Below the pieces are notes generated by a model. That model worked only from the letters and a program-made list of their open reading frames with translations. It was not told the origin of the DNA and did no database searches. Positions 8,011-11,000 of a stretch of DNA of 64,000 nucleotides are shown here, piece by piece. How positions within the stretch are numbered: position 1 is the first letter of the stretch; each line of letters begins with the position of its first letter. The stretch is from Hydrolagus colliei (lineage: Eukaryota): positions 3,100,001 to 3,164,000 of the forward strand of contig CM068769.1 of NCBI GenBank assembly GCA_035084275.1. Reading direction: 5' to 3'. Made by a program: the position numbers and the translations under genes.

Positions 8011-8026
8011 ATGCTTCTCCTAATCT
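8011..8026 (+). CDS. Receptor exon 1 (first half of signal peptide, MLLLI)
   Basis: ATG CTT CTC CTA ATC T followed by a consensus GTGAGT donor. In-frame hydrophobic codons (LFLILV) continue upstream to a TAG at 7990. Confidence 0.7.
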
Positions 8027-11000
8027 GTGAGTATTGTTAATAACTCATTCGCAGAAAAGTTTATTAGCCTCCTGTTCCTCTCTCAAATGTCAGCAACAAC
8101 TTCTTTGATTGGTATGGCGCCCTCCATGCCAGAAGGCGTCTCAGAGCGCGTCACAATAGTAGATCCCCGTGCCGAGTCAGGGGCTGGGGTAGAAAGATGA
8201 CAAAGACACGGTCGGAGAGAAAGGTTTTTAGCTGGGACCTGATGCTGGGAAGAGAGAGGGCTAGGTGAAAGGAATGATGAAGGGCACTCCAGAGCCTTGG
8301 GGCGTCGTGGCTGAAGTCACGGCCGCCGAGGATGGAGGGAAGGGTTCGGGGGACATGGAGGAATCCAGACCTAGTGGAGCGAAGGCAATAAGTGTTGGTT
8401 TCAGGAGAGAGGAGACCAGAGAGGGAGCGGGGTGCAGAGGAGCGAAGGGATTTAAAGATAAGTGTGAGTATCTTTTAATAGATCCTCTCGGGGACAGGCA
8501 CCCAATGAGGGCTGGCAAGGGTTGTGATTAGACGGGGATATTGGTGAAACTGTTTCAGGAGAGGGAGGAGAGAGTTAGAGAATACATAGCAGAGAGGAGA
8601 CAGTAGAAGGGAGAGAGTGAAACACAAGAGGAAAGTGATAAGAGAAGACGGAATGTAAGTGTTAGAGGAGAGTGGGGAGGAGAGAGAGATAGGGGGAAAT
8701 AAAGGAGAGCGGATAAGAGAACGGAGAGACGAGGAAAGAGTGTGAAAGAGAAAAAGAGGGGACATTCTGATTCTGGAATATTACCAAACCCAATTTGTCT
8801 GAGACTCGTGTGAGTGACTGGACAGACCAGATAGTGTGAATTACTGTGTTACTCATTCCAACGTTTATTTTATTTTTCTTTGTGCAGTGCTATTTTGTGG
8901 GGGAACTAAGGTGGAATCTGCAGGTTAGTGACACTGAGAAATTAGAGTTGAAGCCGTGAGAAACCACAATCGTTGACTCGTTAATACCATGGTGTGTCTC
9001 AGGGGAAGCTGAGGTTTGGGGGCGAATGAGGGAGGTGCTTTGCCTGCGTAAATGTGTGTGTGTGTGTGGGGGTGGGCTCTGTCTCTGGGCTGCTGGCTGT
9101 ACCCTGTGGGGTGATTTTACTTGGGGTGAGCTGTAGCCCTTTGTGGATCATTTAGATCATGTGGATCATGGTCCCATTTCCGCTATTGTTTGTGGGACGC
9201 TGTTGTGTGCAATGTAGCTGCCGTGTTTCTGCCACAAAAACACAGTCAATTTTCCGAACTTTTTTCCCCCAACCACAACCCCACCCCCCCTTCTCTGGTC
9301 CCTACCTCTTTTCCCCCATGTCTTCGCTTTTGTCTTCTCCCTACCGCCCTGCTCTTGTCCCAACCTTGGGATGTTGCTGTATACTGCGAAGCGCATTGGT
9401 TCGTTGATAAGACGCGGAAAGTGATATATAAAGCATTATTATTTTTTTATTATCAGCTGTGCCCTGGGGGCACAGCTGTGACCTTGTGGCAAGTTTTCTC
9501 CCCAAGGGGGAGTGGTGGGGACGGGGGCAATGAGCTATGCCTTGTGTTAAGTAAGGCCGTGTCCTGTGCGACCTTTTCTGTGGAGGCTGAGTTGCACTAG
9601 ATATGACTGCGCACTGAGGGGAAGAAATGCTTACTGAGTGGGTGAGTGTCTATGACTATGCGGAGGGTGGAGTTGCCTTGAGCTAGGACTTCTATGCATG
9701 TGGAGAGGGCGCTCTGCATTTGAGATGGGCTGTGCGTGTGGGTTGGTGTATGTTCATGTGGGGAGCAGCTATGTATTGGAAGAGGGGGCTGTGCTTGCGG
9801 TTAGGGGGCTGTGCTTGTGGGGAGGGGGCTGTTTGGAGGGAGTGGGCTGTGAATGTGGGGAGGTTGCTATGCGTGTGGGACAGTGGCTATGTGCGTGGGG
9901 AATGGGCTGTGCCTCTGGGGAAGGGGCTGTGCTTGTGGGGAGGGGGCTGTGCTTGTGGGGAGGGGGCAGTTTGAGGGGTAGGTGGCTGTGTTTGTGGGAA
10001 GGAGGCTGTGCTTGTGGGAAGGGGGCTCTGCTTGTGGGGAGGAGGATGTTTGTGGGGGGTGGGGGCTGTTTGTGGTGGGCGAGGTCTGTCCATTCGGGGA
10101 GGGTCAATGTTTATTGGGAGAAGGCTGTATGTGTGGGGAGGAGGCTGTGTGTGAGGAGGGCGCTGTGCCTGTGGGGTTTTATTGTATGTGTTGTTCTTTT
10201 GTTATATGCCCCCTACGAACGAATAACACTTAGGTCACTGAGCTGTGAGAATGTGGCCAGTATTGGATGTGAATGTGTCTAACTCTGGGCTTCTGTATAA
10301 ACTGTGGAACTTGGCCTGAGCTGTTATATGTAGTAATATAATGGCAATGTTTTTGTCTGTGATTATCTGTGTATTTCCCTATAATACAATATTTTAGCTA
10401 TGATTTTTACCTCCTAGGAGAGGGCGCTATTTAAATCGAAGTTGTTGTTATTGTTTTCGTATTATAGTGAGAGGGTTACCTCAAATTTGATATCATGGAT
10501 CTCAACTCATGGACAAGCTATTCGTTTTTTAAAAACTAAGTTTGCACTAAACCGTAAATTGTGAGGTGAACATGGTTTTTTGCAACAAAATAGTGATATA
10601 GAAAATCACACACTGTTCCATCTGTACTAAAATCGATCAATTGATCAATTGATCGACCGATCGACCGATCGACCCATCAATCCGTCAATCAATCAATCAA
10701 TCAGTTAGTCAGTCAGTCAGTGAGTCAATCAAAACTTATATTGATATAGCGCGTTTGAATTCAAGAGGAAGTCCCAAGTCGCTGTTCAGTTAGGTAGGGA
10801 CAAGTGCAGGGGTGATTGGTCGGGACAGGATGAAGGAGAGTAGAATGATTGACTGTATATTTGTGGGCGAAACGCGGCACCCAAATTTCGCACAACAGTG
10901 TCCCAGAGACAGTCATGGAAGTCAGGTTAGGAGAAAAGTGGGGGGAAAGATGGAAAGGGAAGGGGACAGGGTAGGGGGAATGAGAGCATGAAAATCGTCT

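Follow-up and report, generated by a model that had tools for sequence, protein, structure and literature searches.

A chimaera family of predicted paired receptors with a split leader, LRC-type Ig domains and a probably captured SRCR exon

In a 64,000-nucleotide stretch of Hydrolagus colliei DNA (hereafter the window) we characterized a predicted receptor gene whose leader is split over two short exons and whose ectodomain joins one SRCR domain to two Ig domains. The gene belongs to a large family, and we consider it likely that this family arose when an Ig-only receptor of LRC type, equipped with a split leader, took up the SRCR exon of a neighbouring gene and gave rise to paired ITIM and NxxR forms. 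The first-pass annotation of this DNA had argued for LRC descent from the length of a 36-nt second leader exon and for an SRCR exon shuffled into intron 2; descent and insertion are both supported, whereas the exon length does not amount to strong independent evidence. Throughout, C36 is the contig of the window, L-numbers are loci in this genome and P-numbers are Callorhinchus milii models.

Exon chain and split leader

The predicted product has 418 aa and is encoded by ten predicted exons, in the order leader, SRCR, Ig, Ig, transmembrane segment and a tail with three ITIM-type motifs:

8011..8026, + strand: coding exon 1, 16 nt (five residues and one base, phase 1), first half of the signal peptide
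8888..8923, + strand: exon 2, mini-exon of the leader, exactly 36 nt, phase 1-1, canonical splice sites
12997..13323, + strand: SRCR exon, 327 nt, phase 1-1, six-cysteine domain-1 type (Pfam SRCR, E 2e-26)
14663..14947, + strand: Ig exon 1, 285 nt, phase 1-1, LRC-type
16509..16793, + strand: Ig exon 2, 285 nt, phase 1-1, LRC-type
17529..17627, + strand: transmembrane exon, 99 nt, membrane span without a charged residue
19368..19386, + strand: predicted cytoplasmic exon, 19 nt, kept with its splice sites in paralogues
20461..20504, + strand: predicted cytoplasmic exon, 44 nt, kept with its splice sites in paralogues
21093..21133, + strand: predicted cytoplasmic exon, 41 nt, completes the first ITIM, kept with its splice sites in paralogues
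22161..22265, + strand: last exon, two ITIMs and the stop codon

No further SRCR or Ig domain was found in the 64-kb window besides those of this gene. The SRCR domain is without two of the eight group-B cysteines, and its loop after the WGTV motif (13078-13107 in the window) differs in length and sequence among the paralogues; this variable loop is a candidate ligand site. An 11-nt candidate cytoplasmic exon (18204-18214), with splice sites kept in two close paralogues, fits the reading frame only on skipping of the 44-nt exon or of the other three together, and it is possibly an alternative tail.

The signal peptide had been read as the product of a short exon and a phase 1-1 mini-exon of 36 nt, and the DNA bears this out. 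An in-frame stop lies 21 nt 5' of the ATG at 8011 and exon 1 ends at a GTGAGT donor; exon 2 is preceded by a pyrimidine tract and CAG, is followed by GTTAGT and reads in frame into the SRCR exon. Of the seven mini-exon candidates, symmetric and open, in the 5-kb interval between exon 1 and the SRCR exon, two have a length of 36 nt; the candidate at 8888-8923 has the highest pyrimidine count of the seven and is the one completing the signal peptide; the hydrophobic run of the leader is 9 with it and 6 without it. A 21-nt candidate (9457-9477), which has the FCR/FCRL size, encodes no leader-like peptide.

Together with its splice sites, exon 2 has 14 matches in the genome at three mismatches or fewer, against 0 for a reversed control. 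The predicted frame is free of stops in all 16 distinct paralogous 36-mers (18 loci), against stops in 14 and 3 of the 16 in the other two frames. Their ungapped identity is 0.75 within the exon versus 0.31-0.36 in flanking sequence, no codon position stands out (0.76/0.77/0.74), and a matching segment is present in the C. milii RefSeq models P0004, P0021 and P0008. On this genomic evidence the 36-nt exon is confirmed as real, its splicing being a prediction from the DNA.

The family is extensive: the first Ig domain has 131 matches in this 1.0-Gb genome and the SRCR at least 150, mostly on C36 and several smaller contigs, and the 23 proteins listed for Ig1 are all C. milii models, judged by name or accession series (58-70% identity). 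In a census restricted to loci retrieved by their likeness to the window's exon, which favours 36 nt, several of them possibly allelic copies, an exon-2 homologue was present at 19 of 28 family loci, measuring 36 nt at 14 of the 19, probably 90 nt at four and 57 nt at one. The comparison of paralogues that had been proposed as a check agrees with the 36-nt length at the first group and departs from it at the other five, so that the outcome which the annotation had named as refuting, variable leader exons in paralogues, is seen in part. The 14 loci of 36 nt have a near-consensus donor; at the four probable 90-nt loci the donor at +36 is weak and an in-frame one at +90 is strong, and the 57-nt exon uses the same downstream donor after an in-frame deletion. 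At the other nine loci (L021, L022, L026-L029, L031-L033) no homologue was found, exon 2 being deleted in L022, and an exon 1 homologue of 16 or 25 nt was seen in 14 of the 15 paralogue loci scanned. We conclude that 36 nt is the usual length of exon 2 in the family and probably the ancestral one, though it is not fixed. L019, L024, L036, L040 and L020 form a subfamily whose exon-2 donor, apparently shifted 54 nt downstream, adds a Pro/Thr-containing spacer ahead of the SRCR. A genome-wide count of exon 2 by a short degenerate pattern was discarded as mostly noise (187 matches versus 125 in the control).

How much the length says about ancestry is a separate matter. LRC receptors have a split leader (available text of PMC3601082), and the second leader exon of FCR/FCRL genes is 21 nt, a statement of the annotation that the accessible portions of PMC7940838 and PMC10003336 corroborate. 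The window gene has 36 nt, and this size excludes the 21-nt pattern. In LRC genes a 36-nt second leader exon is typical and the first coding exon measures ~34 nt; the former length is that of the window gene and the 14 loci above, with another length at 5/19, and the latter is not found in the family, where exon 1 has 16 or 25 nt. The size of exon 2 thus fits the LRC pattern, and its peptide showed no significant likeness to four tetrapod LRC-type leaders (p 0.05-0.58). Our literature search, with the primary papers on CHIR, Xenopus ILR, LITR and elephant shark outside its coverage, returned no 36-nt LRC exon rule. CD5L has a split leader with a second exon of '35 bp' (available text of PMC7940838). 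Because the length varies in the family, the SRCR-only neighbours described below have 33 nt, CD5L has '35 bp', exon 1 is short and the peptide has no significant match among the four tetrapod leaders, we regard the 36-nt length as weak independent evidence of LRC descent, the weakest of its supports, with a likelihood ratio of several-fold at most (an estimate, not a computed value). It is consistent with LRC descent and adds no more than modest weight.

Ig domains, membrane segments and paired forms

Descent from an LRC-type Ig receptor draws its support from the Ig domains and from the membrane segments of the paralogues. Among solved structures the best relatives of Ig1 are LILRB1 (E 2.4e-8) and OSCAR (1.2e-7), the best FcR chain being FceRI at 6.7e-3, and Ig2 is closest to LILRB2, then to FCRLA and GPVI. 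A structure model of Ig1 (pLDDT 83) gave six Foldseek matches at E<=0.001, all of them LRC proteins, and with the same model VIA filled ranks 1-7 with LRC domains, among them CHIR-AB1 (Z 13.3, rmsd 2.0, 90 aligned), OSCAR (12.4) and PirB (12.0), compared with 9.6 for FcRL5. A quick tree of Ig domains sets the family on the side of IGSF1 and turtle LRC-like domains against FCRL-like ones (90), and does not place it as sister to tetrapod LRC. By whole-chain score the family profile ranks PirB first and FCRL5 second, and for a shark Ig-only relative FCRL5 scores first. Features of LRC membership that are present include Ig domains nearer to LRC than to other IgSF families, though with FCRL5 second by the family profile, a signal peptide over two exons in the window gene and, in the family, both ITIM and NxxR membrane forms. 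Taken with the NxxR paralogues, the Ig sequences and the modelled Ig1 fold make the assignment of the family to LRC-type Ig receptors a well-supported one.

Scanning of 25 downstream loci showed an uncharged transmembrane segment at 16, an NxxR segment at four, a related segment without the arginine at one and none at four. The four NxxR segments come with a short tail and an acidic residue at the C-end of the segment, and the spacing from arginine to acidic residue is that of primate IGSF1. In the available text of PMC6557307 the NxxR membrane segment is the most conserved LRC element, and it also occurs in Xenopus FCRL and SLAM receptors. The family is predicted from its sequences to comprise inhibitory (ITIM) and activating (NxxR) receptor forms. 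A twin gene at ~6.15 Mb on the same contig (L119/L120, C36:6.149-6.169 Mb) matches the window gene at 95% identity over the stretch from leader to Ig2, but its transmembrane segment is of NxxR type, while that of the window gene is uncharged and followed by an ITIM tail. Since the two are ~99% identical from exon 2 to Ig1, versus 94% in intron 1 and 88% in Ig2, the sequences suggest that the exon 2-Ig1 tract was recently converted between them. Within this tract the SRCR has five changed codons, all non-synonymous, and Ig1 has none, small numbers in both cases.

Origin of the SRCR exon and rival explanations

On the family's contigs (C36, C265, C506, C3) lie SRCR-only genes, which we class as CD163/WC1/SCART-like, and whose first domain is ~70% identical to the family SRCR. 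In a careful tree the family SRCR groups with the domain-1 SRCRs of these neighbours (96/98), and it nests among the domain-1 SRCRs of shark, ray and chimaera SRCR-only genes (97/92, in a tree where two of the rows labelled elasCD come from C. milii and lungfish). Shark and ray SRCR-only genes have the six-cysteine domain 1 as their first domain. Some C. milii members possess a second SRCR, which falls with domain 2 of SRCR-only genes (99, quick tree). These trees rest on ~104 columns and could be distorted by gene conversion; the careful ones have 33 and 40 rows, the latter omitting two long-branch rows, and the 100-row tree was run in quick mode only. The window gene shares the six-cysteine domain 1 with CD163/WC1-like genes and has neither an SRCR-only ectodomain nor their 46/33-nt leader.

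That leader, 46 + 33 nt in 7/7 cases where exon 1 was found (seven introns scanned), also has a phase 1-1 second exon, one codon shorter than that of the family, and against the family 36-mers the 33-mers score like shuffles (p 0.07-0.76). DNA likeness to two tabulated SRCR-only genes consists of the SRCR exon and scattered matches read as dispersed repeats, with no collinear similarity 5' of the SRCR exon. The family leader stands directly before an Ig domain in L030, a broken copy with a stop in the first Ig and no SRCR remnant, and in C. milii P0008 (p 0.0005), whose leader-to-Ig layout is near the register of the LILRB3 leader and first domain, with a two-residue gap; no orthologue of its first Ig was found in this genome (best identity <=55%). 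Because the family SRCR nests in SRCR-only domain 1 and yet the leader of those genes is unrelated, insertion of the SRCR exon into intron 2, ahead of the first Ig exon, is favoured from the sequences, as the annotation had proposed, and the Ig-only contexts of the leader agree with it.

Its alternative, loss of the SRCR from tetrapod LRC genes, is disfavoured for the window SRCR. SRCR+Ig mosaics made up 35 of 139 newly listed hits, and the ten that we named are shark, ray, bowfin and teleost proteins; their N-terminal SRCRs form a separate clade (96/91), and joining the family to them was rejected (p-AU 0.0008, for a group chosen after a tree had been inspected). A divergent gene in which SRCR and Ig exons alternate lies at C35:64-100 kb (L012, L038, L039, L054, L055) and groups with mosaic proteins of sharks and rays. 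Its leader was not found, nor were those of the SRCR genes L005, L009 and L013, and the leader candidates seen for C109 are unconfirmed.

In the explanation that we prefer, the ancestor would have been an Ig-only receptor with a split leader, Ig domains and an ITIM or NxxR tail, which would have gained the phase 1-1 domain-1 SRCR exon of a neighbouring CD163/WC1-like gene while keeping its own leader; some members would have gained SRCR domain 2 as well. The variable SRCR would bind ligand, the Ig domains serving as a stalk or second binding site; ITIM forms would recruit SHP-type phosphatases, NxxR forms would pair with an FcR-gamma-like adaptor, and twins would swap ectodomain sequence through gene conversion. 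The Ig-only members could be secondary losses, which we count against this explanation.

Of the 19q13.4 markers searched for, Tweety genes map to C25 and C27 and LENG9 to C29 and C531, and a PRPF31 exon lies close to the end of C25. None was found on C36, in searches that also missed CNOT3, LENG8 and RPS9, and no Ig or SRCR domain was found near LENG9 (~110 kb) or PRPF31 (~100 kb). A Ribosomal_S4 match considered as RPS9 reads instead as what we take to be IMP3, and a SAC3_GANP match on C14 is presumably GANP. MHC class I was detected on C29, C38 and C83, not on C36. C29 carries both LENG9 (0.49 Mb) and an MHC class I-like gene (3.36 Mb) and may correspond to part of human 19q13. Broken retroelement-like frames (L096-L098, C25:16.33-16.34 Mb) adjoin the PRPF31 exon. 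The window itself holds a rhodopsin-family receptor cluster of four long open frames (36301-37263 +, 41556-42527 -, 47739-48707 + and 56258-57265 -), presumably GPR139-like, with 7tm_1 confirmed in two of the four; similar genes flank LENG9 on C29.

The missing markers on C36 would suit a family lying in the wider LRC/FCRL group, sister or ohnologous to tetrapod LRC, with the 36-nt exon and NxxR either ancestral or convergent. Such a placement, which would leave the SRCR insertion intact, also accommodates the high FCRL5 scores of some relatives, the occurrence of NxxR outside LRC, the lack of a sister placement in the deep Ig tree and an exon-2 peptide not significantly like tetrapod leaders. 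However, sequence and fold searches place LRC domains over FcR/FCRL, exon 2 differs in size from the 21-nt exon of FCR/FCRL, and since the marker searches missed several essential genes we do not count the absence from C36 as a negative; we judge this reading unlikely. Less credible still is that SRCR+Ig was ancestral in gnathostomes and that tetrapod LRC lost the SRCR, the likeness to the neighbours coming from later gene conversion. Mosaics in sharks, rays, bowfin and teleosts, another on C35, and one mosaic leader, from Narcine, that the family profile picks up (p 0.003) speak for it, but the separate mosaic clade, the rejected union with the family and the six-cysteine domain 1 at the head of SRCR-only genes in sharks and rays leave it little room.

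The phase 1-1 33-nt second exon of the neighbours and the '35 bp' exon of CD5L (available text of PMC7940838) invite the idea that an SRCR-only gene supplied the leader along with the SRCR, 36 nt being a one-codon variant of 33 and the LRC match a coincidence. The shuffle-like scores of the 33-mers, the 46-nt exon 1 against 16 or 25 nt, the lack of collinear DNA similarity upstream of the SRCR exon and the family leader directly before Ig in L030 and P0008 make this very improbable. That the 36-nt stretch is unspliced intron sequence copied along by duplications would explain conservation without codon-position bias and the one copy without exon 2, but frame and splice sites are kept in diverged paralogues and C. 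milii models, and without exon 2 the leader is too short and weakly hydrophobic; we find this barely conceivable. Capture of a neighbour's SRCR exon by an Ig-only LRC-type receptor is thus the reading that we retain.

Known systems and evolutionary meaning

LRC paired receptors (LILR/PIR, OSCAR, NCR1, LAIR1, CHIR, Xenopus ILR) share with the family a split leader and one exon per Ig domain (available text of PMC6557307, PMC3601082 and PMC4536121), and likewise an LRC-type Ig fold, ITIM and NxxR forms and an expanded cluster with broken copies. Unlike them, the chimaera family has an N-terminal SRCR, an exon 1 of 16/25 nt and a lengthened exon 2 in one subfamily, and the 19q13.4 markers found lie on contigs other than its own. 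Mammalian FCRLS is a close parallel in the accessible part of PMC7940838: an Ig receptor that kept its own split leader and acquired a group-B SRCR exon likely from a neighbour, in a study where exon-2 size serves as the same kind of lineage marker. FCRLS differs in being FCRL-derived, with a 21-nt exon, and soluble, without a transmembrane segment, whereas the chimaera SRCR is N-terminal on paired membrane receptors. The SRCR-only CD163/WC1/SCART-like genes resemble the family in their ~70% identical six-cysteine domain 1 and shared contigs, and differ in the 46/33-nt leader, about seven to nine SRCRs and absence of Ig domains. Some ChIR genes sit among SRCR genes on chicken chromosome 16 (available text of PMC8813856), a neighbourhood comparable to that of the chimaera family. 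The SRCR-Ig mosaics of sharks, rays, bowfin and teleosts (RefSeq models) also combine SRCR and LRC-like Ig in one membrane protein, but their SRCRs belong to other clades, which points to separate shuffling events.

In the available text of PMC4016189, LRC homologues with only C2 domains were not found in sharks and the origin was put at the base of bony fish, while the accessible portion of PMC6557307 calls the time of origin of the LRC family unclear. Holocephalan LRC-type Ig genes with a split leader, ITIM and NxxR are a test case for an origin in the first jawed vertebrates. Tentatively, and with some doubt, we suggest that the family is a true LRC orthologue, that LILR/KIR-type paired signalling dates from the first jawed vertebrates, and that the captured, hypervariable SRCR, one of several independent captures in fishes, is a positively selected ligand sensor common to inhibitory and activating twins. 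If so, paired signalling of this type would date to the first jawed vertebrates. The family would also extend FCRLS-like exon capture to the scale of a whole family, and the inhibitory/activating twin pair offers material for ligand work; the exon-size signature by itself is of little import. An LRC-like gene in elephant shark was reportedly described by Wang, Belosevic and Stafford in 2021, which would lower the novelty of LRC presence, not that of the SRCR capture or the paired family. Our literature search, with the elephant-shark primary papers outside its coverage, found no paper on the family, on its pairing of ITIM and NxxR forms or on the capture of the SRCR.

The C. milii RefSeq models named IGSF1-like, A1BG-like, OSCAR-like and DMBT1-like belong to the same family, so that automatic names already suggest LRC. 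Two further C. milii models, P0012, which fuses family domains to a B30.2 domain, and P0018, which unites a C35-type SRCR with an Ig domain and tail of the family, may be annotation fusions.
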